Positions 4,100 through 43,920 of a stretch of 64,000 nucleotides of DNA are shown here, piece by piece. Made by a program: the position numbers and the translations under genes. Each line of letters begins with the position of its first letter. Positions within the stretch are counted from its first letter, which is position 1. The notes under the pieces are model-generated. The model saw only the letters and a list, made by a program, of their open reading frames with translations, was not told where the DNA came from and searched no databases. The stretch comes from an uncultured Lachnospiraceae bacterium (lineage in GTDB: Bacteria; Bacillota; Clostridia; Christensenellales; UBA1242), in assembly GCA_964631405.1 (NCBI GenBank), contig CAZVYB010000001.1, forward strand, positions 4,435 through 68,434, given 5' to 3'.

Positions 4100-4915
4100 A
4101 TGAAACTGAATTGGTTTCCCGGGCATATGAAAAAAACACTTGCAGAAATTCGCACAAAACTTGCCAATATTGATGTGGTGATTTATGTGCTTGACTCTCG
4201 TGCACCAATTTCTTCAATAAACCCAAGCCTTGATAGACTTTCACAAAATAAACCCGTCCTTTATGTGTTTAATAAACTTGACCTTGCCGATGAAAAAAGG
4301 GTGAGAGAACTTGCGGGGGCATATCGAGGAGAGAAAAAAGATTATGTCCTTCTCAATAGCACCATGTCTGGGGCAAGCAAGATAATAAGACAAAAACTTG
4401 CCTCTCTTGCAAAAGAGAAGATTGAAAAGTTTTTGAAAAAGGGGATAAAAACAGTTGTTCGAGCAATTGTTGTAGGTGTTCCAAACTCTGGCAAAAGCAC
4501 CCTTGTCAACAACCTTTGCGGAAAGGCAAAGGCTGTGACGGGCAATCGTGCTGGCGTAACAAAAATGACCCAATGGGTGTCAATTGGCGATAATATTGAA
4601 ATTTGCGATACGCCCGGAACTTTGTATCCAAATCTTGAAGAGCAGGAAATCGCAAAAAAACTGCTTTTTATCGGAAGTATCAAAGATGAAATCGTGGCGG
4701 ATACGGCAGAACTTGCCGAGGAACTTATCAAACTGCTTGAAAAAATCAAGCCAAATGTTTGCAAAGAAAGATATGGTGAAAACCTGTCACTTGACGCAAT
4801 TGCAAAAAAGAGGGGCTTTGTTGTAAGCGGTGGAGAACTTGATATATATCGCACAGCAAACGCCGTGATTGACGATTTTAGAAAGGGGCGTCTTGGGAAA
4901 ATCACCCTTGACTAA
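4100..4915 (+). CDS. rbgA: Ribosome biogenesis GTPase A (YlqF/RbgA)
   Basis: NWFPGHMKK N-terminus; circularly permuted GTPase order NKLDL (G4) before GVPNSGKST (G1) and DTPG (G3). Confidence 0.9.
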   Translation: MKLNWFPGHMKKTLAEIRTKLANIDVVIYVLDSRAPISSINPSLDRLSQNKPVLYVFNKLDLADEKRVRELAGAYRGEKKDYVLLNSTMSGASKIIRQKLASLAKEKIEKFLKKGIKTVVRAIVVGVPNSGKSTLVNNLCGKAKAVTGNRAGVTKMTQWVSIGDNIEICDTPGTLYPNLEEQEIAKKLLFIGSIKDEIVADTAELAEELIKLLEKIKPNVCKERYGENLSLDAIAKKRGFVVSGGELDIYRTANAVIDDFRKGRLGKITLD

Positions 4916-9739: not shown

Positions 9740-11692
9740 ATGGCTGGAAAGAATTATGACGCAAAAGATATAGTTGTTTTGGAAGGGCTTGATGCTGTTA
9801 GGCTTCGTCCGGGTATGTATATCGGCACGACGGGTTCAAAAGGTATGCACCATATTTTGTGGGAAATTGTCGACAACGCAATTGACGAAATTTCAAACGG
9901 ATTTGGCGATACAATCACAATCACCCTCAATAAGGACGGTTCGGCGACGGTTGAGGATAATGGAAGGGGCATTCCTGTTGACCAACACCCAACATTGCAC
10001 AAATCGGGCGTTGAAGTTGTTTATACAACCTTGCACGCTGGCGGGAAATTCAACACAGAAAACTATAAATTTTCGGGCGGACTTCACGGCGTAGGTGCGT
10101 CGGTGACAAACGCTCTTTCAAAATTTTGCAATGTCACCGTTTACAAAAATGGAAAGGAATATTTCATTGGTTTTCATTCTTATACTGATGAAAACGGAAA
10201 GACACATAGTGGTGTGCCTGTTGAGCCTCTCAAAATGGTGGGCAAGACGAATAAAAGCGGTACAAAAGTGACCTTCCTTCCTGACAGCGAAATGTTTGGG
10301 AACATCAAATTTAGTTTTGACACCATTTGCAATCGTGCAAGAGAACTTGCCTTTTTAAATAAGGGATTGAAAATCGTCCTTAAAGACGACATCAATGACA
10401 GGGAAGAGAATTTTCATTATGAAGGTGGTATAAGCGACTTTGCCGAATATTTGGTTGAGGGCAAAAGCAAACTCTTTTCAAAACCAATTTTCTTCCATGC
10501 AGAGGACAAAAACTTTGACCTTGAAGTGGCAATCATATATACAGACAGTTACACCGAAAATTGCTTTTCATTTGTAAACAACATTCCAACCATAGAGGGC
10601 GGGACTCATGAAACGGGCTTTAAAACGGCATATACAAAGGTGCTGAACGATTATGCCCGAAACAACAACTTTTTAAAGGAAAAAGAACCAAACTTTTTGG
10701 GCGAGGATTTTCGTGAAGGCATCACCATTGTTTTAAATGTCAAGATGAACAATGTTCAATTTGAGGGACAAACAAAGACAAAACTTGGCAATCCAGAGGC
10801 AAAAACGCTGGTTGAAAACCTGTCTATGCGAGAACTTGCTCTTGTTTTTGCCAATAAGAAAAACACAGCCATTGCCGAAATCATTATGGGCAAGGCGAAA
10901 GGTGCTGCCAAAGTGAGAGAGGCGGCAAAGAAGGCGAAGGAACTTACCCGTGCCAAAAACTCAGCAGAAAATTTCAACTTGGTGGGCAAACTTGCCGCTG
11001 CAACCAGCCGAAAGAGTGAAGAGTGTGAACTTTTTATTGTAGAGGGTGATTCTGCGGGTGGCTCGGCAAAACAGGGTAGAAATCGAAAATTTCAGGCAAT
11101 TTTGCCACTTCGAGGCAAACCTCTTAACGCAGAGAAAAAACGCATTGACCAAGTGCTTGCAAACGAGGAGATAAGGACAATCATTTCCGCCCTCAATACC
11201 GGCATTGGCGAGGATATTGACCTGTCGTCGCTGAGGTATCACAAAGTGATAATCCTAAGCGATGCCGACCAAGACGGTGCACACATCAGGGCGATTCTTT
11301 TGACATTCTTTTTCAGGTATATGCGAGAACTTATCAATGCCGGTCATGTTTATATAGGCCTTCCACCACTTTATAAAGTCTATAAAAAAGACTATGAAGA
11401 GTATGTTTATAGCGATGCAGAACTGCCAGACGCAATCGCAAGGGCGGGGCGGGGGTATAACCTTCAACGATATAAAGGTCTTGGTGAAATGAACCCTGAC
11501 CAATTGAAAGATACCACAATGGACCCTGCAAAACGCAACCTTATTCAGGTGACAATTGAGGACGCTACTGAGGCAGAACGCATGGTATCAACACTTATGG
11601 GTGACGATATTGATGCGAGAAAGAGATATATAAACGAACACGCAAACTTTGACCGTGAAGACTATTTTATGAAAAACTATAAAAGGGTGTAA
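9740..11692 (+). CDS. parE: DNA topoisomerase (ATP-hydrolysing) subunit B, GyrB/ParE family; ParE-like by partner and context
   Basis: GHKL ATPase and Toprim motifs VLEGLDAVRLRPGMYIG, EGDSAGGSAKQGR, ILSDADQDGAHI. Subtype is inferred from the ParC-like A subunit downstream and the absence of dnaA/dnaN/recF context. Confidence 0.85.
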   Translation: MAGKNYDAKDIVVLEGLDAVRLRPGMYIGTTGSKGMHHILWEIVDNAIDEISNGFGDTITITLNKDGSATVEDNGRGIPVDQHPTLHKSGVEVVYTTLHAGGKFNTENYKFSGGLHGVGASVTNALSKFCNVTVYKNGKEYFIGFHSYTDENGKTHSGVPVEPLKMVGKTNKSGTKVTFLPDSEMFGNIKFSFDTICNRARELAFLNKGLKIVLKDDINDREENFHYEGGISDFAEYLVEGKSKLFSKPIFFHAEDKNFDLEVAIIYTDSYTENCFSFVNNIPTIEGGTHETGFKTAYTKVLNDYARNNNFLKEKEPNFLGEDFREGITIVLNVKMNNVQFEGQTKTKLGNPEAKTLVENLSMRELALVFANKKNTAIAEIIMGKAKGAAKVREAAKKAKELTRAKNSAENFNLVGKLAAATSRKSEECELFIVEGDSAGGSAKQGRNRKFQAILPLRGKPLNAEKKRIDQVLANEEIRTIISALNTGIGEDIDLSSLRYHKVIILSDADQDGAHIRAILLTFFFRYMRELINAGHVYIGLPPLYKVYKKDYEEYVYSDAELPDAIARAGRGYNLQRYKGLGEMNPDQLKDTTMDPAKRNLIQVTIEDATEAERMVSTLMGDDIDARKRYINEHANFDREDYFMKNYKRV

Positions 11693-11745
11693 AGGGCGTC
11701 GCACCAAAATCGACCTGCACCCGATTTTGACGCTCCGCTTACAAC
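11693..11745 (+). repeat. 53-nt bulged-hairpin motif, copy A (starts 1 nt after parE stop)
   Basis: Outer stem GCGTC/GACGC, bulge GCACC, inner stem AAAATCG/CGATTTT, loop ACCTGCACC, tail CCGCTTACAAC. Aligns without gaps to 15959-16011. Confidence 0.6.
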
Positions 11746-11801
11746 TGAATTTTAAAGAAATTTAACGATAATAAGTGCATAACTGCACAATTGGAGAAGA
11801 T

Positions 11802-14306
11802 ATGAAGGAAAACAACTACGAGCAATCAAAGATGGACTATGGCGAAGAGGGAAGCCTAAGCGAAGAACTTGCGACCATTGAAGGCGAAACATCTCAAACA
11901 AAGGGCAAAGGTGGCGGACAGAAAGGGATTATATATAAGTCCATGAGCGAGGTGCTTCATGAATCTATGATTCCATATACCGAAAGCGTGGTGCTTGACC
12001 GTGCTCTGCCTCGTGTTGAGGACGGCCTTAAACCTGTGCAAAGAAGAATTTTGTTTTCAATGCTTGACCTATCGGTGACACCGGATAAACCTCACAGAAA
12101 AAGTGCGAGAATTGTGGGGGATTGCCTTGGTAAATATCACCCTCACGGCGACAGCTCGGTTTATGATGCAATGTGCCGTATGTCACAAGAATGGGTGCTG
12201 AGAGCCCCACTTGTCGACGGACATGGAAACTTTGGCTCTGTTGACGGCGACCCACCAGCGGCTATGCGATACACGGAGGCTCGCCTCACCCCACTTGCAA
12301 TGGAACTTATGCGTGACCTTGAAAAGGACACTGTGCGTTGGAGTTTGAACTTTGACGACACGCTGAAAGAACCAGAGATGTTCCCGGGAAGATTTCCAAA
12401 CCTGCTTATCAATGGTGCGTCAGGAATTGCGGTTGGCGTTGCGACAAATATCCCACCACACAACATTGGCGAAACTATTGATGGAGTTGTGGCTTACATC
12501 AACAATCCAAACCTTAAAATTGAAGAACTGACAAAAATAATCAAAGCCCCAGACTTTCCAACGGGGGGGATAATCATTTCCAAAGATGACGGACTTATGC
12601 AGGCATACAAAACTGGCAAAGGAAAGATTGTCATTCGTGCAAGAGTTGGCATTGAGAAGTCGGGGGATCGTACATCACTTGTGATAACAGAAATCCCATA
12701 TCAAGTGAACAAGGCACTTCTCCTCCAAAAAATTGCCGAAGCCAAGGAGGCAAACAAGGAAAAACTTGCTGGCATCACAGAAATTCGTGACGAGTCGGAT
12801 AGCCACGGCATGAGGGCTGTGATAAAACTGAAAAAAGACGCCAACCCTCAAAAAATTCTTGAATTTTTGTTTAAGTCAACAAACTTGCAAATTTCTTTTG
12901 GTATCAATATGGTTGCAATCGCAGATGGCAAACCAAAACTTTTAAATCTGCTTGAAATTGTGTCATATTATGCCCAATATCAGCGTGAAATCATTGTAAA
13001 ACGCACAAAATATGACCTCAATGAGGCAAAAGAGAGGGCTCATATTGTTGAAGGATTGTTGGTTGCAATCAAGAATATTGACGAGGTTATAAAGATAATC
13101 AAAAAATCTGCCTCTGTCAGCGAAGCCAAACAAAAATTGAAGGAAAAATTTGCCCTCAGTGACCGCCAAGTGCAGGCAATTATGGATATGAAACTGTCCC
13201 GCCTTGTGCATCTGGAAGTCAATAAACTTGAAGAGGAACTTAAAGAATTGAAGGCCAAAATCGCCGAATATGAGGCAATTCTTGCCTCTAAAAAGGCACA
13301 ATTTGATATCGTTAAGAAAGAACTTTTGGAAATCAAAAAGGGGTATAGTTCTCCAAGAAAGTCAAGCATCAATGGCGACGAAAATATCAAACTTATTGAC
13401 CTTGATAAAGAAGAGGAAGAGCCAACAAAGAACTTTATTTTCGCCATATCCGCTGGAAATACAGTGAAAAAGGTCACAACCAAAAACTATTCAATGTCAC
13501 AAAAGACAATTGGTGAAAACACTACAATCACCGATATACCAAAAGAAGTCCAAACAATTGTCTCAAACGAAAATGTACTGATTTTTACAAGTTATGGCAA
13601 TGTCATCAAACTCCCAGCCAAGGATATAAAAGAATGTAAGTGGCGTGATAAAGGACTTGCACTTCTTGCTCTTGACAAAAATGCAGGACTAAATGAAATG
13701 CCTGTCGCAATTATGAAAACCCCTGAAAAGGGAAGCGAAATCATTTTTATGACAAAACAGGGCATGACGAAAAAGAGCCTAGGCGAGGAACTTGTCCTTT
13801 CAAAATCATTCTATCAAGTTTGCAAACTTGGTGAGGGGGACGAGGTGCTTGCCGTGGAAGTTGCCAAGAAAGGGAAAAGCCTTCTTTTCCTTACAAAAGG
13901 CGGTATGTCACTGAATTTCGAGCAGGCAGAAGTGCCACTTCAGGGTAGAATTTCTGGGGGTGTAAAGGGCATCAATCTTGACGAGGGGGACGAGGTTGTT
14001 TTCGCGTCACAACTTGATTTCTCTCATGTGATTGTCGTCACTGAGAATGGATATATCAAAAAACTTTCAACCACCCAATTCCCACTTTCTCCAAGATATC
14101 GCAAGGGGCTTAAATATGTCAATTTCGCCAAAAACGCAAGGGCAGTCACCTATGCGTGCAGTGCAGAAGGAGAAACAACTCTTGCAGTTGACTTTGGTCT
14201 GAAAATCTTGCCACTTGACACCTCAAAAATCCCAGAAAGCGAAAGACTTACAAGCGGAAACGAGATTATCAAGAAAAACTTTTTTACAATCAATAAAATG
14301 ATTTAG
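11802..14306 (+). CDS. parC: DNA topoisomerase (ATP-hydrolysing) subunit A, ParC-like
   Basis: Active-site [21 protein letters not shown] (Gln as in ParC; GyrA usually has His). No GyrA-box (QRRGGKG-like) seen in the C-terminal domain. ATG 11802 with GGAGAAGA RBS preferred over GTG 11775. Confidence 0.8.
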
Positions 14307-14350
14307 ATTTGCGGAATTTTTCACAAAAATCAAATCAATATTTGAAAAAG

Positions 14351-14377
14351 ACTTGAAGAAAACTTCAAGTTTTTTTT
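14351..14377 (+). terminator. Rho-independent terminator after parC
   Basis: ACTTGAAG/CTTCAAGT 8-bp stem, loop AAAA, T7 run. Confidence 0.85.
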
Positions 14378-14516
14378 GCATTTTCTATACGGACAGGACA
14401 TATACATATCTCGAAATGCACCCAACCGACAAATTTCAACCGAAAACTCCCATTTTTGGCATTTTTCTTCTTTGCGAGGACAAAAGGGTGCTATATCATT
14501 AAAAGCGAGGTTTGTT

Positions 14517-15281
14517 ATGCCTATTTGTGCAATCAAAGCGAGAACAATCAAAATTATTGTGGCGGTGCTTATCATTGCTGTTTTGCTTATTGTGCCAATC
14601 GAGGGAAGTGCCTCGGCACAAGTATGGTTTGGCAAAACAGGACGCCTCGTGCCAATTTATGATGTGGCAACAGAGGAAAAGCAGGTGGCAATTTCCTTTG
14701 ATGCCGCATGGGGTGCGGACAAAACTGAAGAGATTTTGCAGGTGCTAAAAGAGTACAACGCAACCGCAACCTTCTTTCTTGTTGGCTTTTGGGTAGATAA
14801 ATATCCAGACATGGTGAAGAAAATTGATGAGGCGGGCATGGAGATTGGCACTCATTCAAACACTCACCCCGATATGGCAAAACTTGACGAGGACACGATA
14901 AGACAAGAACTTACGCTTTCTATGCAAAAAATCACCGATTTGATAAATAAGGACATCAAGGTTTTTCGCCCACCATATGGCTCATATAACAACACTTTGC
15001 TCAACACCTGCACAGACCTTGGACTTACCGCCATTCAATGGAATGTTGATAGCCTTGACTGGAAGGGGCTTTCAGCAGGTGAGGTGACAAACAGGGTGAT
15101 GCAAAAGACCAAAAACGGCTCGATAATTTTGATGCATAACAACGCCGACCATGTGATTGACTCAACAAGGCTGTCACTTGACTGGCTTACCAAAAGTGGG
15201 TATAAGGTGACAAGCGTGGGCGAACTTATCTATGACGGCGACTACTATATTGACGCAAACGGCACACAACACAAAAAATGA
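14517..15281 (+). CDS. Polysaccharide deacetylase (NodB homology domain), membrane-anchored
   Basis: N-terminal TM IKIIVAVLIIAVLLIV; motifs FDAAWG and THSNTHPDM, LMHNN; ATG 14517 with GCGAGG RBS preferred over 14376. Confidence 0.85.
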   Translation: MPICAIKARTIKIIVAVLIIAVLLIVPIEGSASAQVWFGKTGRLVPIYDVATEEKQVAISFDAAWGADKTEEILQVLKEYNATATFFLVGFWVDKYPDMVKKIDEAGMEIGTHSNTHPDMAKLDEDTIRQELTLSMQKITDLINKDIKVFRPPYGSYNNTLLNTCTDLGLTAIQWNVDSLDWKGLSAGEVTNRVMQKTKNGSIILMHNNADHVIDSTRLSLDWLTKSGYKVTSVGELIYDGDYYIDANGTQHKK

Positions 15282-15292
15282 AAGGAGAAAAT

Positions 15293-15958
15293 ATGAATAG
15301 TACAACGATAGTTGCAAAGCCCAATAATAGGGGGCAAATCAGCGGAATTATTTGCGAAAAACCAACCAAACAATTTGAGGTTGAAGGAGAAGGCTTTTAT
15401 GAGGGCTTCTTGTCTGTGGAACGCCTCTCTCAAACCAACGACATTTTGCCTTTTACCATTTCAGAAAAACTAATGAAGGCATATGATGTCAGCCTTGAAA
15501 GGGGAGAGAAAGTCAAATTCACAGGAGAACTTCGCTCCTATAATAAGGTGATTGAAGGAAAAAGCCGTTTGATTTTGTCCTTCTTTGTCAAAGAAGTTTC
15601 ACATATGCAAGAGGAGGCAGAAAACATTCTTTCACTTGTCGGCTTTATCTGCAAAACGCCTGTATACCGCACAACCCCATTCAATCGCCAAATTTGTGAT
15701 GTGCTTTTGGCTGTCAATCGCCCAAACTTCAATAAGTCTGATTATATCCCGTGCATAATGTGGGGAAGAAATGCAAAGTTTATTCAAAACCAACCAGTAG
15801 GCACAAAAGTCAACTTGACAGGCAGAATACAATCACGCAAATATCGAAAAGAGATTGCAGAAGGTCAGTTTGAAGAACGCACCGCCTATGAAGTGTCTTG
15901 TCAAAGCGTTGAAATCGCACAAAAAGAGGAGTCATCTTCCTCTCTTGACCTTGCATAA
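15293..15958 (+). CDS. SSB-like protein with two tandem OB folds
   Basis: Second half aligns by eye to bacterial SSB (LAVNRPN..DYIPCIMWGRNA..GTKVNLTGRIQSRKY). First half has the same pattern (LSVERLS..DILPF..GEKVKFTGELRSYN). No acidic DDDxPF tip. ATG 15293 follows AAAGGAGAA. Confidence 0.7.
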   Translation: MNSTTIVAKPNNRGQISGIICEKPTKQFEVEGEGFYEGFLSVERLSQTNDILPFTISEKLMKAYDVSLERGEKVKFTGELRSYNKVIEGKSRLILSFFVKEVSHMQEEAENILSLVGFICKTPVYRTTPFNRQICDVLLAVNRPNFNKSDYIPCIMWGRNAKFIQNQPVGTKVNLTGRIQSRKYRKEIAEGQFEERTAYEVSCQSVEIAQKEESSSSLDLA

Positions 15959-16011
15959 AACGCCTCGCACCTGCGTTGACCGTCGACCAACGCAGAGGCT
16001 CGGCTCACAAC
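15959..16011 (+). repeat. 53-nt bulged-hairpin motif, copy B (starts 1 nt after SSB-like stop)
   Basis: Outer stem GCCTC/GAGGC, bulge GCACC, inner stem TGCGTTG/CAACGCA, loop ACCGTCGAC, tail CGGCTCACAAC; 33/53 identical to copy A with compensatory stem changes. Confidence 0.6.
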
Positions 16012-16029
16012 CTATGCATTTAATTTAAT

Positions 16030-16195
16030 TAATAAAAAGCCCCTTCTGGGAGGGGCTGTCGGCATAGCCGACTGGGGGAGAATGCAACATTGTGAAGAGC
16101 CTTCCCTTGGGGGAAGGTGGCAAGGCTACAACAAAAAGTGCAAACGGCACTCGTCCAGTGTAAGGCTGCGGAAGTAGAACGCAAAAATAGTAAAC
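16030..16195. ncRNA. Candidate small structured RNA (family and strand unresolved)
   Basis: GC-rich island in an AT-rich gap between convergent genes. Four perfect local hairpins at 16039-56, 16058-72, 16100-17 and 16137-51. Terminator-like hairpins with U-runs are available at both ends. The minus-strand reading exposes C-rich tracts (CUCCCCCA, CCCAGA). Confidence 0.3.
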
Positions 16196-16226
16196 AAAAA
16201 GACTTGAATTTTTCAAGCCTTTTTTT
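16192..16226. terminator. Bidirectional terminator at 3' end of XRE gene
   Basis: CTTGAA/TTCAAG hairpin (16203-16217) flanked by A-run and T7 run. Confidence 0.7.
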
Positions 16227-16438
16227 CATTCTTCCAAACCCGCTAAATAGTCAAGGCTTACATTAAAATATTCTGCCAAAACAAGCAAGGCGTCAAGCGT
16301 TGGACTTCTTTTGCCCAATTCCCAAAAACCAATGGCAGAAGGGGAAACAAACCCCTTCAATTCTTTGGCAAGTTGTGCTTGACTTAAATTTTTCTCCATT
16401 CTTAATTCTTTTATTCGTTCAGGGAATTTATTTTTCAT
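16226..16438 (-). CDS. XRE-family HTH transcriptional regulator (70 aa)
   Basis: IKELRMEKNLSQAQLAKEL...SAIGFWELGKRSPTLDALLVLAEYFNVSLDYL is a classic Cro/C1-type HTH; start at MKNKF (16438). Confidence 0.9.
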   Translation of the reverse strand: MKNKFPERIKELRMEKNLSQAQLAKELKGFVSPSAIGFWELGKRSPTLDALLVLAEYFNVSLDYLAGLEE

Positions 16439-16464
16439 GAAAGTTCCTTTTTTAGGATTATAAA

Positions 16465-16510
16465 CAATAGTGGTTAAAACTCTTGACATAACCACTATTG
16501 TGGTTATATA
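16465..16510. promoter_or_regulatory. Divergent promoter/operator region with three GTGGTTA half-sites
   Basis: + strand TTGACA (16483-88), 16 nt, TATATA (16505-10). 20-bp palindrome ATAACCAC-TATT-GTGGTTAT (16488-16507) lies between -35 and -10. A 12-bp inverted repeat CAATAGTGGTTA (16465-76) / TAACCACTATTG (16489-16500) is also present. A minus-strand TATAAT sits at 16461-16456. Confidence 0.6.
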
Positions 16511-16529
16511 GTTTAAATGTGGAGAAAAG

Positions 16530-16737
16530 ATGGGGAATTATACGATAAAAGCAAAAAAGATTATAGAAGAATATTTAAAAAAATGAAATTTCAAAAAGCA
16601 GGTTTTGTCGTCTTTGCAAAATATCCGTTCGAGAGTTTAAGCATTTGTTTGATTATCGTCACTCAGTCAATAATGACACTTTTTATAAAATCGCACAAAC
16701 AATGAAGTTGAGGTTGAACAATTGTTTGTTGGTATAA
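16530..16737 (+). pseudogene. Small Cro-like HTH gene interrupted by a +1 frame change at an A7 run
   Basis: ATG 16530 (RBS GGAGAAAAG) gives MGNYTIKAKKIIEEYLKK then TGA at 16584. The next frame from 16585 reads EISKSRFCRLCKISVREFKHLFDYRHSVNNDTFYKIAQTMKLRLNNCLLV (HTH-like) to TAA 16735-37. The junction is AAAAAAA at 16577-83. Confidence 0.35.
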
Positions 16738-19631: not shown

Positions 19632-19647
19632 AAAATGATATTTTAAA

Positions 19648-19711
19648 AACAGCGGAAATTTCCGCTGTTGCATTTACCGACAAAAAAATGTGAAGTTTCA
19701 CATTTTTTTTT
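19648..19711. terminator. Two hairpins between convergent groEL and SDR genes
   Basis: Palindrome AACAGCGGAAA/TTTCCGCTGTT (19648-69), then ATGTGAA/TTCACAT hairpin flanked by A7 and T9 runs (19682-19711), usable on both strands. Confidence 0.8.
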
Positions 19712-19753
19712 GTTTTTTGCTGTTTTTTTTTGCATTTTTTCTTAAATTTTTGT

Positions 19754-21322: not shown

Positions 21323-24300
21323 ATGTTGCGAAAGAAAAATCTATCATATATATTTTTGTCAATAATTGCAGTTCTTCTGTCTTGCACAGGACTTTTTATT
21401 GGTGACAATGATTTGTTGTCGACCGAACAATTTGAAGAAAAGGGTTTTATTGCTGACGCATATAGCAGTTATAGCGAATTGTATTATAGTTACACCGATT
21501 TTTCAAGCGACTATGATGGCTCAACTCTTCCAGCAGAATATTGCCTGCGTGACGAATATATGCTTTATACACAACAACAGGCATCGCAGGGGCTTTGTTG
21601 GGCATTTGGCTCTCAAACTGCACTTTCTACTACAATTATGAAGGCAACGGGGGAGTGGCTAGATTTTTCTGAATCTTGGATTTCAATTGCCCTTACATAC
21701 GCATTAAACTATGAGGGCTTTTCCGACTACGCAAACACACTGAGCGGAAGTTATCTTCCCGGCGGTGGCGGATATTATTGCAGTGTAGATTTGATTGCAA
21801 GAAAGTATGGGCTGGTACTTGAACAAGATTGTGGATTTGAGGATAGTTCTTTCCTTACAAAAGAAAATACACAAGAGTTTTATGAGTTTTACTCAAAATA
21901 TGCAAACACAAACATTATGGACAATATTGAAGGCGGAAGGTTTTTGCTTTATAACAACTATGCGTCCACTGCTAAAACAAAAATTATAAACTCAATGAAA
22001 CAACACATTCTCAATAATGGTGCAATTGAAGCGGGAATGTATTGGGAAGATTATGTTGATGAAATATACAATGGCGAGGCTATCACATACAAAATTCCAA
22101 GCACAACAGCAAACGCAGGGCACCTTGTCACTTTGATTGGCTGGGACGATAATTTTTCGGTGACATATGAAGGCACTGCGTATACTGGTGCATGGATTGC
22201 ACTTAATAGTTGGGGCGACGACCTTGGTTATGACGGGATTACATATCTTCTTTATGATGATACAGATTTCAACTCTGCCTTTTTCGGCTGGAAGTATACA
22301 GAGGACACAACTCAAGATACATACTTTCTTACAACAATGAATGACGCCACAACAGGCGATTATACCACTGATAAAGTTGGTGCATACTATGGTGATTTTT
22401 CGGCAGAGGAGGGGCAAACCCTTCAACAAAATATCTTTTATAATGTTGATGATGTGACCCTCGTTTATGACTATACAATAAGCACAAACACCCAAATTTC
22501 TTCAACCAAGGTTATAAAATCAGACGGCGAAGATGTGACAAGAAATTTTGATATTGATGTCACATCAAACCAAATCACATATACAGCAAGCGATGTGGCT
22601 GTTGGCTCATACAAAATAGTCACAATCGTTTCAAACGCCACAACGGGAGAAACAAAAGAATATCTCAACGCTTTTTATGTCACCGATGGTATGGAAATAG
22701 GATATGGCTATTTGTACACAGCAAATACCACAGTTTCAAATCAAGGCAGATTTCAAAATTTCAATTCCCTTTATACGGGAAGTAAAGATTTTTATTATGC
22801 AACAACCAACACATCTGGCAATTTCTATATGTTTATCATAAAGGCGTCATATAGCGATATTCTTAGGGCTGTGCCAAGCAGTGGAATTTCTATTTATGAC
22901 GCAGGCGACTATTATCAACTTTACATTCAATACAATTTTTCCTCTTCTACAATAAACCATTTTACAATCACATTTTATAACTCTCAAAACAAGTCCAGCG
23001 TAATGAATTTTTATATTCAAAAAACGGTGTCTGGAAACGCATACCCAAATCTGCTGATTGAAACAAATGGCGGTACGCTGAACGGGGAGGAACTTAAAAG
23101 ACTTGTCGTTTCTCAGTCATCGGGCGGAAAAGTCCCAACCCCAACACGAGAGGGCTATGACTTTAAGGGCTGGTATTATAGCGACGACTTCACATCGGCA
23201 AACAAACTTTCACAAACTGATGGCGAATATTACATTGACTATGACAAAATCATCAACTACTCATCTTCAACGGTTGACTGGCAGTCGGCATTCAATTCAT
23301 ACTATGACCATGCCGAAGTTGTTTTTCTTTACGCCGATTGGGAGGTTTCAAAATACACCATCACAGCATCAGTTGAAGGTGGCGGGTCAATTTCTCCAAG
23401 CGGAGATGTTGAGGTAGAATATGGTCAAAACCAAACTTTCACATTCTTGGCAAACGCAGGCAATGCAATTTCTTCAATATATGTTGACGGGGTGGAACTT
23501 ACCGGCACAACACTTACAAATGCAATCGCAAACGGATACACATTTGAAAATGTCACCCAAAACCATACAATCAAACTTGTTTGTACGGCAAATTCATATT
23601 CAATCACTGCATCATGCTCGGTGGGTGGCTCAATTTCTCCAAGCGGACATATCACAATCACAGAAGGCTTATCTCAAACCTTCACCTTCTCTCCAAACGA
23701 AGGATATTATCTTAGCGGAGTGACAGTTGATGGCACAGCACTCGACGCAACCGCACTTGCAGATGCTTTGGCAAATGGTTACACATTCCAAAATGTGAGC
23801 CAAAACCATGAAATCGAGGCAACTTTTGCCATTCAAACATTCACAATCACGGCAAGCAAGTCGGGAAGCGGTACAATTTCGCCAATCGGTGCAAAAACAC
23901 TCAATTATGGAGGAATGCAAAAATACACCTTCACTCCAAACGAAGGTCAAAAGGTTGTTTCTATAATTATCGACGGCGAAGAACTTACAGGCGATGCATA
24001 TATAGAGGCGTACAATAATGGATACTATATTTTTGAAAATGTCACAGAAAACCACACAATTACTGTGCATTTTGCGACAATATATTTCCAAATCGTTATC
24101 ACCCATAACGAAGGCGGTACAGTTTCGCCAGACGGCAATGTTTCAGTTGCTTATGGCGAAAGCCAAACAATCACAATCACACCAAATGAAGGCTATATGG
24201 TTTCAAAAATTGTTGTGAATGGCATTGAAACCACACCAACAAACAGAGTTTCATTCTCAAATGTGACTTCACATAAAACTCTTGATATCACATTTGATAC

Positions 24301-25978
24301 AATAAAATTTGCAATCAACGCTTCGTCAACAGGCAATGGCACAATCTCGCCGGAGGGTAGCGTGATGGTCGTTCAAGGCGAAAGCCAAGCTTTCACATTC
24401 TCTGCGGGAGAGGGGTATCATATTGCAAGCATAATTGTTGATGGCATTGCTCTTGAAGGCGAAGAAATGGCAGAGGCGTTTACAAACGGATACACCTTCA
24501 CAAATGTTCAAGGCATACACAGCATAAAAGCAGTTTACGAAATTGACACATTTGCAATTTCAGTTGTGGCAACAGGAAACGGCACAATTTCTCCGGCAGG
24601 GGAACAGATTGTCAACTATGGGCAAAACAAGACTTTCTCATTCACTCCAAACGAGGGCTACAAAATAAAAGAAATCATAGTTGACGGACAAAACATGGGT
24701 GTTCTTACATCATATACTTTTGAAAATGTCAAAGAAACCCACTCAATTGAGGCGATATTTGAAAGAATATATTTCACACTGACAATTGTCAGCAATGAAG
24801 GGGGTATAGTCACTCCAAACGGCAATGTTCAAATAGGCTATGGCGACAGCCAAATAATAACAATCACCCCAAATGAACATTTCAATATTGATAAAATCCT
24901 TCTCGACGGAAGCGAAGTTGAAATTTCAAACACGGTCACACTTACAGATGTCAAAAAAGACTATAACTTGCAAATAAAATTTATTGAAATTTTTACTATT
25001 ACATCGGTTGTTGTTGGCGAAGGGACAACCACTCCAACAACCGAAGTCTTGGAAGGTGGACAACTGAAAATTGAATTTTTCCCAGCCGAAGGATACAAAG
25101 TCAAAAATGTAGAAATTGACGGAGTAAGCGTTGGTGCGGTTGAATTTTACATTTTCATTGATGTAAACTCATCTCACACAATCACAGTGGAATTTGCAAT
25201 TAAAACATTTACCATATCACTCAGCGTTGACGGCAAGGGAGAGGCAAAATGTACAGAAACCCTTACCTCAGTAAAATATGGCAGTGAAAGGACAATCACT
25301 ATCACGCCAAACGCTGGCTGGAAAGTGTATAAGGTGTATGTCGACGGAATTGCTCAAACACTTAAAGATGACACATTGACACTTCTCTCAATCACCGAAG
25401 ATATGACAGTTCAAGTGATATTTGAAAGAGGTGAAGATTCAAGCCAAGTAGACGGAACAATGATTGCAATCATTGTCGTAGGTGTTGTGATTGTAGGACT
25501 TTTGGTTGTGCTTATAATGAAAAAGGGCAAAAAACCACCTAAAAATGGGGACAAAAAAGAGGTGAAACCTCAGACATCTAAAAACGCAACTCCAAAACAA
25601 GAACAAAAACAGGAACAGGTGGCGGAAAAAACTGCCGAGATGAAGACGGTTCAGCAAAAACCTCAACAATCAAAAGAGATAGCAACCGAACAAAGACCTC
25701 AGGCAGAGCAAACTGTAACAAAAACAGAACAAAAAACAACTGAAAATTTACAGCAAACAATTCAAAAAACAGAGGAAAAGCCTCAACAATTTGCAACAGA
25801 GCCGAAGAAAATCCCAACTCCACCACAACGACCAATTCCGCCAAGACCACCAGTGCCACCAACAAGACCAATCCCTCCAAAACCACCAGTTCAACCACAA
25901 AGCGGGACGGTCAATCAAAAGGCACTAGAAAGGGCACAGGCCTTCAAAAAGTCAAATGGAGAAAACAAACAAGGCTAA
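21323..25978 (+). CDS. Giant surface protein: papain-like C1 peptidase + Listeria-Bacteroides repeat + 9 InlB-B-type repeats + TM + Pro/Gln-rich tail
   Basis: N-terminal signal with LLSC lipobox-like site. C1 catalytic contexts QGLCWAFGS (Cys), NAGHLVTLIGWDDN (His), ALNSWG (Asn). REGYDFKGWYY...LYADW matches the Flg_new type. TM IAIIVVGVVIVGLLVVLIM then KKGKK. Tail ends PPQRPIPPRPPVPPTRPIPPKPPVQP. Confidence 0.85.
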   Translation: MLRKKNLSYIFLSIIAVLLSCTGLFIGDNDLLSTEQFEEKGFIADAYSSYSELYYSYTDFSSDYDGSTLPAEYCLRDEYMLYTQQQASQGLCWAFGSQTALSTTIMKATGEWLDFSESWISIALTYALNYEGFSDYANTLSGSYLPGGGGYYCSVDLIARKYGLVLEQDCGFEDSSFLTKENTQEFYEFYSKYANTNIMDNIEGGRFLLYNNYASTAKTKIINSMKQHILNNGAIEAGMYWEDYVDEIYNGEAITYKIPSTTANAGHLVTLIGWDDNFSVTYEGTAYTGAWIALNSWGDDLGYDGITYLLYDDTDFNSAFFGWKYTEDTTQDTYFLTTMNDATTGDYTTDKVGAYYGDFSAEEGQTLQQNIFYNVDDVTLVYDYTISTNTQISSTKVIKSDGEDVTRNFDIDVTSNQITYTASDVAVGSYKIVTIVSNATTGETKEYLNAFYVTDGMEIGYGYLYTANTTVSNQGRFQNFNSLYTGSKDFYYATTNTSGNFYMFIIKASYSDILRAVPSSGISIYDAGDYYQLYIQYNFSSSTINHFTITFYNSQNKSSVMNFYIQKTVSGNAYPNLLIETNGGTLNGEELKRLVVSQSSGGKVPTPTREGYDFKGWYYSDDFTSANKLSQTDGEYYIDYDKIINYSSSTVDWQSAFNSYYDHAEVVFLYADWEVSKYTITASVEGGGSISPSGDVEVEYGQNQTFTFLANAGNAISSIYVDGVELTGTTLTNAIANGYTFENVTQNHTIKLVCTANSYSITASCSVGGSISPSGHITITEGLSQTFTFSPNEGYYLSGVTVDGTALDATALADALANGYTFQNVSQNHEIEATFAIQTFTITASKSGSGTISPIGAKTLNYGGMQKYTFTPNEGQKVVSIIIDGEELTGDAYIEAYNNGYYIFENVTENHTITVHFATIYFQIVITHNEGGTVSPDGNVSVAYGESQTITITPNEGYMVSKIVVNGIETTPTNRVSFSNVTSHKTLDITFDTIKFAINASSTGNGTISPEGSVMVVQGESQAFTFSAGEGYHIASIIVDGIALEGEEMAEAFTNGYTFTNVQGIHSIKAVYEIDTFAISVVATGNGTISPAGEQIVNYGQNKTFSFTPNEGYKIKEIIVDGQNMGVLTSYTFENVKETHSIEAIFERIYFTLTIVSNEGGIVTPNGNVQIGYGDSQIITITPNEHFNIDKILLDGSEVEISNTVTLTDVKKDYNLQIKFIEIFTITSVVVGEGTTTPTTEVLEGGQLKIEFFPAEGYKVKNVEIDGVSVGAVEFYIFIDVNSSHTITVEFAIKTFTISLSVDGKGEAKCTETLTSVKYGSERTITITPNAGWKVYKVYVDGIAQTLKDDTLTLLSITEDMTVQVIFERGEDSSQVDGTMIAIIVVGVVIVGLLVVLIMKKGKKPPKNGDKKEVKPQTSKNATPKQEQKQEQVAEKTAEMKTVQQKPQQSKEIATEQRPQAEQTVTKTEQKTTENLQQTIQKTEEKPQQFATEPKKIPTPPQRPIPPRPPVPPTRPIPPKPPVQPQSGTVNQKALERAQAFKKSNGENKQG
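23351..25430 (+). repeat. Nine in-frame ~72-84-aa domain repeats (InlB B-repeat-like) inside the 1551-aa gene
   Basis: Recurrent pattern F/YTITAS..G.GTISP.G...V.YG.SQTFTFTPNEGY.....VDG.......YTFENV...H.I...F read nine times in the translation. Confidence 0.75.
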
Positions 25979-40972: not shown

Positions 40973-42457
40973 ATGGAGAAAGTTGCGATTATTGACCTTA
41001 GCGAAACCTCGCTTGACCTGACTATATACAAGGTTTCTGGAGGAAAGAGTGAACTTGCCTTGACAGAAAATCAATCTTTTGCCATCGGAAAGGAAATCAC
41101 GAGGGAGGAACTTTTAAGCCCTCAATTGAAAAATTCAATCATTGAAATTTTAAAGGTATATCGCAAAATGATTGAAGCATACGATGTGCAGAAAATCATA
41201 CCAGTTGTGACAGGATATATCACTAAAGCGAGAAATTATCGCGGATTTTTGGACGAGATATACAATAATACAGGACTCAGTTTTACAATTGTCAGCGAAG
41301 AAGAACGCATGAAACACCTTTTCGCCTCCGTCATTGGAACAATTGATTGTACAAAGGGTATGTTTATTGAAGTTGGTGCATACACGACAAATATTGTCAA
41401 ATTCAATAGACGCACAGTGCTTGAAAACATTTCATTGCCATACGGCTCATACAATGCAGGGGAAATTGACGAAAACCTTGACACAGTTGTGAAAACAATC
41501 AAAAAACAAATCAATCCAAAGGGCTTTACCGATGAGGCTGATGATGACTATAAAATCGTAGGTGTTGGCAAGGCGTTTGTTAGTATGGGAAAACTTGCAA
41601 AGAAGATTGAAAGATATCCACTTGATGTCGATAACGCATATGTTGTTGGCAGGGAAATTCTTGATAAAACATTCACCTTCATAAAGGGGTTGGAACTTGA
41701 TAAGATAAGAAAAATCAAAGGAATTGATGACGAGGACGCACCACAAATCGCATCGGGAATGGCAATTATAAAGGCGATTTACGAGGCACTTAAAATACAA
41801 TCGGTGATTGTTTCAAACGCCGACCTTGAATATGGGGTGCTTTCAAACAATGTGCTTTCACTTTCAGCTGATAGATTTAATGATGTGCTTGCCTGCTCGC
41901 TTGAAAGTTATTTTGAGTTTAATAAAAACGAATTTTCAAATAACGATAATGTATACAATATGGCAATTGTGCTTTTCAAACAATTGAAAGTTATGCACAA
42001 ACTTTCAAGATACTATGTAAAACCGCTTCGAATTGCGGCATTTATGTATGATAGTGGAAAGTGTATCAATCAAGAAAACTTTGCAAAACATGGCTTTGAA
42101 AAAATTGTATATTCGGGATTGAAAGGGGTTGGACATAAAGAACTTCTGCTTGCTGGCTTTGTATGCGTATGCCAAAAACTTGATAACTTCTCACTCAATG
42201 AATGGATAAAATATAAGGACATTTTGGGAGATGAAGAACTTGAAGCGGTAAGAAAACTCGGCGTCATTTTGGGACTTGCCGTTGCACTTAACGCATCAAG
42301 AAAACCAATTGTACAAGATGTTATGTGCGACATTCTTGGGGACTCAATCATAATGAAGACGGTTGTCACTGGTGACGCTGGATATGAACTGCTTGAAGGC
42401 ATGAAAGTTGCCTCAGATTATAAAAAAGTATATAAAAAGAGCCTTCAAATTATTTAA
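40973..42457 (+). CDS. Ppx/GppA-family (ASKHA + HD-like) protein with degenerate catalytic motifs
   Basis: Collinear with exopolyphosphatase: IIDLSETS (vs DLGSNS), TGYITKARN..FTIVSEEERM, IEVGAYTT (vs DIGGGST), C-terminal FMYDSGK (vs LHDIGK). Start abuts the ferredoxin stop. Confidence 0.65.
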   Translation: MEKVAIIDLSETSLDLTIYKVSGGKSELALTENQSFAIGKEITREELLSPQLKNSIIEILKVYRKMIEAYDVQKIIPVVTGYITKARNYRGFLDEIYNNTGLSFTIVSEEERMKHLFASVIGTIDCTKGMFIEVGAYTTNIVKFNRRTVLENISLPYGSYNAGEIDENLDTVVKTIKKQINPKGFTDEADDDYKIVGVGKAFVSMGKLAKKIERYPLDVDNAYVVGREILDKTFTFIKGLELDKIRKIKGIDDEDAPQIASGMAIIKAIYEALKIQSVIVSNADLEYGVLSNNVLSLSADRFNDVLACSLESYFEFNKNEFSNNDNVYNMAIVLFKQLKVMHKLSRYYVKPLRIAAFMYDSGKCINQENFAKHGFEKIVYSGLKGVGHKELLLAGFVCVCQKLDNFSLNEWIKYKDILGDEELEAVRKLGVILGLAVALNASRKPIVQDVMCDILGDSIIMKTVVTGDAGYELLEGMKVASDYKKVYKKSLQII

Positions 42458-42474: not shown

Positions 42475-42527
42475 GACGCCCATAGCCCAACTTGCCTGTT
42501 TGAGCCGAGTTTGGGCGGGGCGTTTTT
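42475..42527 (+). terminator. Terminator after Ppx-like gene
   Basis: ACGCCC/GGGCGT outer stem with inner CCCAA/TTGGG, T5 run. Confidence 0.7.
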
Positions 42528-42585
42528 GATAAATTTAAGTATATAATTGTAGAGATTTGACTAATCTATGATAGAGGAGAAAAAA

Positions 42586-43920
42586 ATGAAGAACACATGG
42601 GCAAAACTGACAATTTCAATGATTTTGGTGCTGGTGGTATCATTTTTAGGCACACATTTTCTTGTGCCACTGCTGAATAGAAAATCATATTCACAAACCG
42701 CTTGCTTAACAGACCAAATCACAGAAAGTATGGATATTTATGACATCGCAAAACTATATAGGGATAACCTTGCCACAGTCGCAGTCACAGTGCAGGGGAA
42801 TAATAATGTGGACGGATACACATACACCTCACTTGGAAGCGGTGTTTGCGTTGCTTCAAACGGATATGAAACAACAGACCTTGAAACAAACATTGTTGCA
42901 AGCACGGGCAGTTATGTTGCCACAAACTATCATGTGATTGACATGATGCTTTCAAATGATTTTTCGGGCACATCACTTAAAATCATCACAGAGGAGGAGG
43001 TTGAATATTCGGCACAACTGCTTTGGCATAGCAAAGACCTTGACCTTGCCCTTATTTATACAGACAAAAACCTAGATTATGTCAAAATGCAAGACAGGGT
43101 GATTTTCTGCACAGAAGAGGATAAACTAGACTATGAACCTGCATTCACAATTGGCACACCGCTGGAGTTGTCATACCTTAACCGCCTTACAATTGGCTCA
43201 ATTGCAAGCAATAACACAATGATAATGCCAAGTGCTGAGTATATTTATCCATATACTTCTGGTGGAGAACTTAAATATTCAAACTACTATTCATACGCTC
43301 ATAGCGACGAGGTTATTGTTATGAGCAACACTTATGAAGATGTTGTTGATATTTCAATTGGCATCACAAGCGGAAACTCAGGTGGCGGTTGCTTTGATAG
43401 TAATGGCGTACTTGTGGGACTTACAACGCTGGGGCTAGACGCAAGCGTAACAGCAGGAAATCAAATGAATGGCATTGTTCCAATTTACCCAATCATTGAG
43501 GTTCTTGATAGGGTGATTGCAAACAAGGAACAAAACGCAAACTACTCAATCCATACACTTGAAAGCCTTGACATAGTGGGCATTGATGCATATGAGGCAT
43601 ACTACTGCTCACTTTTCCAAGAGGAAGAGGGGGTTGCTTACTATTTTATCGACGGAAATTTCTTTTCAACAAGCCAGTATGCAAACGCCTTCAATTTTTC
43701 TTCAACTGGATATTATATTTTGAAAAATAACGGAAGCGTGTCAAACCTTACAGCAGGAAAAACCATAACAGGTTGCACCATAAATGGCGAAACAAACTTT
43801 GAAATTGTTGATAGAAATGACCTCATTTATGCACTCTTACAGATAAGAGATGGCGATAATGTGACTTTCACAAGCACAAACATTTTGGGATATTCAAGTT
43901 ATACACAAGTTCAGTTTTAA
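42586..43920 (+). CDS. Membrane-anchored trypsin-like (S1) serine protease
   Basis: N-terminal TM; His ATNYHVI, Asp DLDLALIY, Ser GNSGGGCF; ATG 42586 preceded by AGAGGAG. Confidence 0.8.
   Translation: MKNTWAKLTISMILVLVVSFLGTHFLVPLLNRKSYSQTACLTDQITESMDIYDIAKLYRDNLATVAVTVQGNNNVDGYTYTSLGSGVCVASNGYETTDLETNIVASTGSYVATNYHVIDMMLSNDFSGTSLKIITEEEVEYSAQLLWHSKDLDLALIYTDKNLDYVKMQDRVIFCTEEDKLDYEPAFTIGTPLELSYLNRLTIGSIASNNTMIMPSAEYIYPYTSGGELKYSNYYSYAHSDEVIVMSNTYEDVVDISIGITSGNSGGGCFDSNGVLVGLTTLGLDASVTAGNQMNGIVPIYPIIEVLDRVIANKEQNANYSIHTLESLDIVGIDAYEAYYCSLFQEEEGVAYYFIDGNFFSTSQYANAFNFSSTGYYILKNNGSVSNLTAGKTITGCTINGETNFEIVDRNDLIYALLQIRDGDNVTFTSTNILGYSSYTQVQF

Follow-up and report, generated by a model that had tools for sequence, protein, structure and literature searches.

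Two 53-nt hairpin sequences in the window, i.e., the whole 64,000-nt stretch of DNA analysed here, are true members of a small, lineage-restricted family of inserted hairpins. The family is maintained by selection, and comparison of its copies showed that the selected fold is that of the minus strand, antisense to parE, to an SSB-like gene, to the leader of an LRR_5 gene, and to groEL.

Hairpin copies in the window and in related genomes

The two window copies and the genes that they follow are:

9740-11692, plus strand: parE-like ORF (type IIA topoisomerase B subunit of the gyrB/parE kind), ending in a TAA stop
11693-11745, minus-strand fold: copy A, between the parE-like stop (11690-11692) and the parC-like ATG (11803)
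15278-15958, plus strand: SSB-like ORF (PRK05813-type protein), ending in a TAA stop
15959-16011, minus-strand fold: copy B, directly 3' of the SSB-like gene (stop at 15956-15958)

A first-pass annotation of this DNA had placed the two copies at these coordinates and aligned them without gaps at 33 of 53 identical positions; both statements were borne out, and each copy does begin with the base right after a TAA stop. The copies share one plus-strand minimum-energy fold (z = -3.0 and -3.4), and their inner stems differ at five of seven pairs with complementarity kept in both. By itself, an identity of 33/53 is common, being reached by 210 direct 53-mer pairs in the window. Most high-identity 53-mer pairs come from two ORFs for large repeat proteins, one of 2540 aa (46147-53769, minus strand) with near-identical repeats of ~1.2 kb (49172 vs. 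50375, 53/53) and one of 1551 aa (21323-25978, plus strand) with Flg_new/InlB B-repeat domains and periods of ~243 nt. When the variable stem was masked, A and B matched at 31/41 positions and were, marginally, the best pair outside the true protein-repeat regions. Since identity within the window is not rare, the status of A and B as a family rests on the copies found in relatives.

Covariance models were built from two copies (R1) and from five copies (R2). With filters off, neither model found a third copy in the 64-kb window; R2 scored copy A at 71.7 bits (E 1.6e-18) and copy B at 72.8 bits (E 7e-19). A weak model match at 4820-4866 (minus strand) was rejected as lying inside an ORF, and another at 42498-42524 (minus strand; R2 11.5 bits, E 0.34) as an ordinary bidirectional terminator between ORFs 40973-42457 and 42568-43920. 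The latter site, AACGCCCCG..CTCGGCTCAAAC, is similar to copy B in its outer parts but has no counterpart of the inner hairpin; given the context of an ordinary bidirectional terminator, this similarity is probably due to chance.

Loci of relatives (denoted by L numbers) were fetched via exact and near-exact proteins, namely GroES, ParE cluster mates, and MinD. A covariance-model search, as the first-pass annotation had proposed, was run on these loci and matched 13 further copies in four related genomes, the full copies with E = 1e-12 to 1e-18. The R2 total is thus 15 copies in five genomes, hereafter clade I, all on the plus strand as written and at four sites:

Site A, after parE: all five clade-I genomes (window, L009, L131, L134, and L137)
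Site B, after the SSB-like gene: window, L009, L134, and L137; truncated in L131
Site C, 5' leader of the LRR_5 gene: L009, L131, L134, and L137
Site D, groEL/adh_short terminator, core only, with flanking A and T runs: L131 and L134

The fixed offset from the stop codon that had been claimed for the motif holds at site B, where the first base directly follows the stop in all four genomes; at site A the start varies from 0 to 3 nt after the stop (positions 1 to 4) across genomes, site C does not follow a stop codon, and site D is a terminator. A strong plus-strand promoter (TTGACA-18-TAAAAT, preceded by TG) precedes site C by ~20 nt, so sense RNA is certainly made there. The core at site D is the sole hairpin between the convergent groEL and adh_short genes in L131 and L134. 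This convergent junction (19632-19753 in the window), which was compared in the window, L009, L131, L134, L135, L138, L002, and L003, is a clear example of fast terminator turnover: six unrelated terminator hairpins occur across the eight loci, and they are common only within the close pairs window/L009 and L131/L134.

Nucleotide identity of parE/parC gave the clade I tree ((window, L009), (L137, (L131, L134))). Clade II (L001, L135, and L138) is ~80-82% identical to clade I over these genes, and the outgroup L002 ~75%. Site A is empty in L001, L135, L138, and L002, and site B in L001, L138, L002, and L003; no R2 copy was found anywhere in the L135 or L138 loci, and in L138 a terminator directly follows the SSB stop, without the motif. 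Since sister lineages with ~80% identical parE DNA have empty sites, the element is an insertion of ~50-80 nt on the clade I stem. Three sites were gained on that one short branch and D later, in one sub-lineage, with a stem unlike that of any neighbour. The element is thus no ancient regulator of these operons, and a conserved cis-regulator of parE-parC is not supported, the spacer of the motif-free lineages being 21-39 nt long.

All copies lie within ~9 kb, from parE to the end of groEL, at 2-4 per genome in the 43-64 kb seen. The window has two copies in 64 kb and none in its other 60 kb; the L131-type genome has four in 43 kb, all inside 9 kb. The minD region (~21 kb), examined in four genomes of the L131 type and in one further genome, contained no copy. 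Wider pattern scans gave no true match. In 185,579 species genomes, the pattern CGCACC-N6-GACC-N{14,22}-CTCNGCTNACAAC, which is stricter than the relatives' true copies, gave 4 chance matches outside the Clostridia. In metagenome contigs, the core GCNNCGCACC-N23-GASGCTCSGCT gave at least 120 matches in high-GC coding DNA, and among the matches listed none had the stem. Viral contigs and the phage and plasmid collections gave no match. A match in L005, a Pirellulales genome, was rejected as a search-pattern artefact. Against Rfam 15, no match at gathering score was obtained in the whole window; with cut-offs of E<=10 for 11600-16150 and E<=1 for L131 16100-17250, no family overlapped the motif.

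Several rearrangements were observed between the SSB-like gene and groES. In L131 (16208-16232), copy B is cut after nt 19 and continues, across a CGCT microhomology, into what in L134 is the sequence downstream of copy C (compared with L134 16206-16258 and 16633-16700); this B/C fusion indicates that the region was rearranged by illegitimate recombination involving copies of the motif. At 16226-16530, the window has an 89-aa, RstR-like HTH repressor with operator-like repeats (AACCACTATTGTGGTT) that resembles clade-II L138 16700-17020. The other clade-I genomes have a 69-aa HTH protein with TTGACAATTGTCAA operators, unlike the window HTH, and a swap of this module explains why the window has neither copy C nor the LRR_5 gene. 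The segment 16012-16230, between copy B and the HTH gene (16226-16495, minus strand), is rich in hairpins and has three minus-strand terminator-like sites (16057-16038, 16152-16136, and 16224-16196). Its module order (AAAAAGCC..GGC hairpin, GTCG..CGAC hairpin, and a purine-rich, SD-like run) is common to the LRR_5 leaders of relatives (L009 6191-6335, L134 16686-16808, and L131 16225-16400 and 16800-17170), and the segment is what remains of a deleted LRR_5 cassette or else an insulator made of several terminators. A larger RNA composed of copy B and the downstream hairpins was rejected, as only the module order is common to L009 and Rfam gave no match.

The selected fold is that of the minus strand

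The core segments CGCACC and GA(S)GCUC show no or almost no variation among the 15 copies. This core is conserved across lineages whose synonymous sites are ~40% diverged (third codon positions 61% identical); at these positions the window and L131 have an identity of 0.61, and L137 and L131 one of 0.76. The central stem differs at every site and also between orthologues. Its inner parts are as follows:

Site A inner stems: AAAAUCG (window and L009), CAUGUCG (L137), and CGCGCCG (L131 and L134)
Site B inner stems: UGCGUUG, UGCGCUG, and CGUGCUG

Between orthologues, the stems at A and B have changed through compensated transitions by way of U·G intermediates. Under a plus-strand model of the type drawn in the first-pass annotation, double changes occur in 9 of 13 pairs and 94.7% of cells are paired, a level far above that of shuffled and slid controls; under the minus-strand model, double changes occur in 12 of 18 pairs. 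By either model, the compensatory stem change described earlier for two copies reflects a genuine repeated structure. In the outer stem, pairs 5-45 (C-G to U-A in L131 and L134) and 6-44 favour an interrupted-helix fold over an outer stem with a GCACC bulge, and among five sequences the former was 95.4% paired vs. 89.2% for the latter. Copy B of L134 and that of L137 differ at ~10 of 53 positions beside a flank of 32 identical nucleotides.

When the same 18 column pairs were read on both strands, 96.7% of cells were paired on the minus strand vs. 73.5% on the plus strand, and double-change pairs numbered 12 vs. 10. The RNAalifold consensus was -26.9 kcal/mol for the minus strand (18 pairs, 3-nt loop) and -19.5 kcal/mol for the plus strand (13 pairs). 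The minus strand was the stabler in 15/15 copies, by 2.6-10.4 kcal/mol (copy A, -19.8 vs. -13.3 kcal/mol; copy B, -23.3 vs. -20.0 kcal/mol). One-sided changes in the stem were all U·G on the minus strand and C·A on the plus strand, with none being G·U on the plus strand; this asymmetry rests on ~5 independent uncompensated changes, wobbles on the minus strand only (P about 0.03). Since the plus strand is G-rich (GC skew) and bears most genes, it was taken as the leading strand. A C-to-T bias is expected on the leading strand and would push against the strand asymmetry that was observed.

From base to tip, the minus-strand helix comprises three base pairs (GCS/SGC), a tandem G·A, GC and CG, a tandem G·U, C-G, six free base pairs and then G-C, a second tandem G·U, C-G, and a free 3-nt loop, i.e., U-rich-GCS-GA-GC-GU-C-N6-G-GU-C-NNN-G-GU-C-N6'-G-GU-GC-GA-SGC-U-rich. 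Two C-GU-C/G-GU-G modules are thereby set 10 bp apart. The non-Watson-Crick pairs are invariant in 14-15 of the 15 copies, whereas the six central pairs are exchanged through compensatory changes. In copy A, the helix spans 11696-11738 and reads GCG / GA / GC / GU / C-AAAAUC-G / GG(U)... on the minus strand, with loop GCA. In copy B, it spans 15962-16004 and is followed on the minus strand by GUUUUAUGC, which includes the complement of the stop codon. The parts of the two window helices that hold the wobble pairs are:

11701-11705 (GCACC) with 11729-11733 (GACGC), minus strand: lower module of copy A, with G-C, C-G, tandem G·U/U·G, and C-G
15967-15971 (GCACC) with 15995-15999 (GAGGC), minus strand: lower module of copy B, with one wobble broken (C·U)
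11712-11722, minus strand: hairpin top of copy A, read on the plus strand as G ACC UGC ACC C
15978-15988, minus strand: hairpin top of copy B, read on the plus strand as G ACC GUC GAC C

The columns of the GCACC module are invariant in 15/15 copies; their wobbles on the minus strand are GU in 14 copies and UG in 15, and on the plus strand all 15 are non-pairs. The C·U of copy B, at pair 16-44, is the sole exception (GU:14, CU:1). At the hairpin top, the consensus G-ACC-NNN-GAC-C of the plus strand becomes G-GUC-NNN-GGU-C on the minus strand and forms G-C, G·U, U·G, and C-G below a triloop. Pair 26-34 is GU in 14 copies; pair 27-33 is UG in 12, with GG, UU, and GC once each; and pair 28-32 is CG in 12, UA in two, and UG in one. 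Because plus-strand position 28 of copy A (window 11720) is C and not A, its pair 27-33 is G·G and its upper wobble module is imperfect.

The conserved bulge GCACC and loop had been described as unpaired. This description belongs to the plus strand, where A·C/C·A and U·C/C·U stand opposite each other; on the minus strand the same positions are G·U/U·G wobbles and a tandem G·A. The hairpin is therefore strong in minus-strand RNA and weakened in the sense mRNA.

Possible polarity and recognition

The 10 nt 3' of the helix hold on average 4.8 T on the minus strand vs. 2.8 on the plus strand (13 full copies). With a tail score of -2.5 or better taken as the cut-off for a U-tract, 7 of 13 full copies qualify on the minus strand. 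All four B copies do so with scores of -3.2 to -4.8 (-3.22 in the window), within the top 10% to 1% of background, and site B lies downstream of the minus-strand HTH gene, a context that fits a polar-terminator reading well. At site A in the window and L009 (-2.25 and -1.95) and at site C (-1.6 to -2.2), minus-strand tails are at background level; therefore, termination is not a property of every copy. On the plus strand, 5 of 13 full copies reach the -2.5 grade vs. 29% of background positions; the mean score is -2.37, the tail is A-rich, and both D copies pass the cut-off (-6.28). The window copies have no U-tract on the plus strand and an A-rich tail, in agreement with the earlier view that they are not canonical sense-strand terminators, and a terminator scan called neither of them. 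Neither a minus-strand gene nor a convincing promoter feeding site A was found. A parC promoter in the tail of copy A was considered and rejected, as no site was called there.

In two relatives an extra minus-strand gene is convergent with parC, one for a 176-aa protein of unknown function (L009 3407-3937) and one for an acetyltransferase (L138 14549-15004); the window has no minus-strand gene convergent with parC. Antisense transcripts that cross parC towards copy A could originate from such a gene.

Several features call for explanation: the strict retention of G·U and G·A, which in no copy set give way to Watson-Crick pairing; the freedom of the central stem and loop; stop-codon contact at sites A, B, and D and a position just outside the promoter at site C; and the employment of the core as a real bidirectional terminator at D, a junction with its own hairpin in every lineage. 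We tentatively suggest, as a possible if doubtful reading, that the family consists of direction-selective RNA hairpins that block or end minus-strand transcription at gene boundaries while sense transcription passes. In minus-strand transcripts, whether from the convergent HTH and adh_short genes or from antisense read-through, a stable helix of ~20 layers would form and would abut a U-rich tract, part of which is the stop-codon complement. Helix and tract together might terminate or pause transcription, or yield a nuclease-resistant 3' end, at a point that the polymerase reaches shortly ahead of the upstream plus-strand gene. Sense transcription and translation would pass, since in that direction the helix has six mismatched layers and the tail is A-rich. 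Direction selectivity is favoured because no pair other than G·U is kept on one strand and lost on the opposite one. Such a role would account for the absence of G-C or A-U replacements of G·U, for the stop-codon contact of the element, and for the use of the core as a bidirectional terminator at D, where U and A runs flank it. A·C mispairs in terminator stems are known to cause read-through and can be evolutionarily fixed (PMC8745188).

Background-level U-tracts at A (window and L009) and at C, the lack of an evident source of minus-strand transcripts at A, and the certain plus-strand transcription of C weigh against this reading. Moreover, a plain terminator has no need of invariant G·U and G·A tandems spaced by one helical turn, an arrangement that looks more like a protein-recognition surface. 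It is conceivable, but rather unlikely, that the hairpin is a protein- or nuclease-recognition element of minus-strand RNA and that termination is incidental. The two C-GU-C/G-GU-G modules, on the same helix face, and the tandem G·A would then bind a dimeric dsRNA-binding protein or an RNase III-type enzyme, which would process or stabilise the transcript. Recognition of this kind suits a set of non-canonical pairs that is fixed while the pairs between are free, and it suits the poor U-tracts of several copies. RNase III substrates fall in the length class of ~20 stacked layers, as does this helix. Weighing against recognition, the examined loci contain no clade-specific partner gene (only XRE-type HTH and LRR_5 genes differ), minus-strand transcription at site A is putative, and Rfam offered no match in the window or the L131 region. 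We know of no binding motif that matches the hairpin consensus.

The closest analogue is, by analogy and not by membership, the Tuberculosis Rho-independent terminator motif (TRIT) of Mycobacterium, likewise a lineage-restricted, terminator-like hairpin with conserved sequence and structure and a narrow stop-codon offset (Gardner et al. 2011, PMC3152330). From comparable sequence conservation, its authors likewise suspected a dsRNA-binding factor (PMC3152330). However, TRIT has been reported only in Mycobacterium, where it has 147 dispersed copies per genome and is largely palindromic, bidirectional, and located at about position -8 inside the coding sequence (PMC3152330), whereas the present family has 2-4 copies seen in one 9-kb region, a free central stem, and strong strand asymmetry. 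There is no sequence relationship between the two, and the phyla differ.

Action in the sense mRNA, which had been one of the initial readings, is unlikely. The hairpin would in that case protect the upstream cistron against 3' exonucleases, mark a processing site, or tune translation termination at the stop codon, like the REP hairpins of E. coli operons. The plus strand is certainly transcribed at every site (parE-parC operon, SSB 3' UTR, LRR_5 leader, and groEL terminator), its fold is still significant (z about -3), and a position 0-3 nt after stop codons would be appropriate. Yet the plus-strand helix contains six invariant mismatched layers and is the less stable in 15/15 copies. Moreover, all five uncompensated changes are C·A on the plus strand and U·G on the minus strand, contrary to what a sense RNA predicts, and the C·A excess persists despite the C-to-T bias that GC skew would lead one to expect on the leading strand.

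Relation to known hairpin families

A further alternative is a palindromic mobile DNA element, REP/MITE-like or derived from the ends of a single-strand transposon, with its transposase elsewhere and its hairpin read as ssDNA. Stem covariation would then stem from diverse master copies or template-switch correction and not from host function. We regard this as decidedly unlikely, even if the copies are insertions absent from sister lineages, three sites were gained together, and the variable parts evolve faster than the flanking spacer (site B, L134 vs. L137). DNA hairpins also tolerate G·T and sheared G·A pairs. However, the few copies lie in one 9-kb stretch in a single orientation, without inverted pairs, a GTAG head, a conserved cleavage tetranucleotide, or an in-register target duplication. 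The favoured strand would be the leading-strand template, in contrast to the lagging-strand template on which IS200/IS605 and REP systems rely, and template-switch correction would erase the invariant mismatches. As to a target-site duplication, TAAAG (site A) and TGCAT (site B) each occur twice at a distance of 63 nt, but their registers with respect to the motif differ, so at least one of these repeats is due to chance.

REP, BIME, and REPIN elements are described as short, extragenic, imperfect palindromes right after stop codons, also within operons, that are gained or lost between related genomes, in which they resemble the present family; they can stabilise mRNA or weakly terminate transcription (PMC2817692, PMC3116915, PMC3479197). 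REPs are further described as exceeding 100 per genome, with a conserved palindrome bearing a GTAG head, inverted pairs, and a tie to a RAYT gene. Here, no 5' GTAG/GTGG head was found, the heads on either strand varying (GTAAG, CTTAG, TGTTG, TTAAG, GTGAG, and others), and REPIN/BIME-type inverted pairs are absent, all 15 copies being single.

IS200/IS605 ends and attC sites are also imperfect hairpins with a variable stem, in which mismatches impose the strand choice, and attC sites follow the stop codons of cassettes. The present family, by comparison, has no pair of left and right ends and no TTAC-type cleavage site: there is one hairpin per site, in place of the paired subterminal hairpins of IS200/IS605/PATE. 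The TTAC/TCAC tail from which a REP or IS200/IS605-like nature had been argued is confined to the window copies; elsewhere the tail reads UAAG, AACA, UUAA, UCAA, ACAA, and others. A search for a RAYT/TnpA(Y1) gene had been advised, and no transposase, integrase, or Y1/HUH gene was found, either in the scanned ORFs of the window or in the genes called at the related loci. Since Rfam gave no match, no transposase lies nearby, and TTAC/TCAC is unconserved, the hairpins are neither REP nor IS200/IS605-like. The tails do not contain the attC core RYYYAAC/GTTRRRY, and the flanking genes are syntenic core genes that are present also where the motif is absent.

Ordinary intrinsic terminators are resembled by site D, a textbook bidirectional terminator built on the family core, and by site B with its usable minus-strand U-tract. 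However, intrinsic terminators share no mutual sequence, with five unrelated hairpins at the groEL/adh_short junction of related lineages, whereas this family keeps an invariant set of non-canonical pairs, and most of its copies, unlike intrinsic terminators, lack a good U-tract on either strand. The features of CIRCE, boxA/nut, K-turn, attC, parS/ram, CRISPR repeats, and small ribozymes do not, to our knowledge, fit the consensus. The family is not part of REP/BIME, IS200/IS605 ends, attC, or any Rfam family.

That two ordinary hairpins or terminators merely look alike has next to no probability left: the commonness of 33/53 identity, the lack of a third window copy, and the fruitless wider scans (two with ill-chosen patterns) would suit it, but it is refuted by thirteen independent covariance-model matches in relatives (E down to 1e-18), which lie at new sites as well as orthologous ones, keep the core invariant, and show compensatory change.

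Taken furthest, the hairpins might represent a new class of polar RNA hairpin that uses invariant tandem G·U and G·A for the very reason that they pair on a single strand and mismatch on its complement, that insulates genes from antisense or convergent transcription or recruits a dedicated dsRNA-binding factor, and that spreads locally by insertion at stop codons, although we consider this distinctly doubtful. The scope is narrow, namely one clade of uncultured Clostridia with few copies seen. One lesson concerns strand assignment: where A opposite C, or U opposite C, appears conserved and unpaired, the opposite strand should be folded. If direction selectivity is true, strand polarity would be the design behind the strictly conserved G·U and G·A pairs, with a hairpin in one direction of transcription alone, and other genomes could be searched for polar terminators or insulators by this simple sequence signature. 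The family would also be the second example, after TRIT, of a lineage-specific family of gene-end hairpins that hints at an RNA-binding factor.
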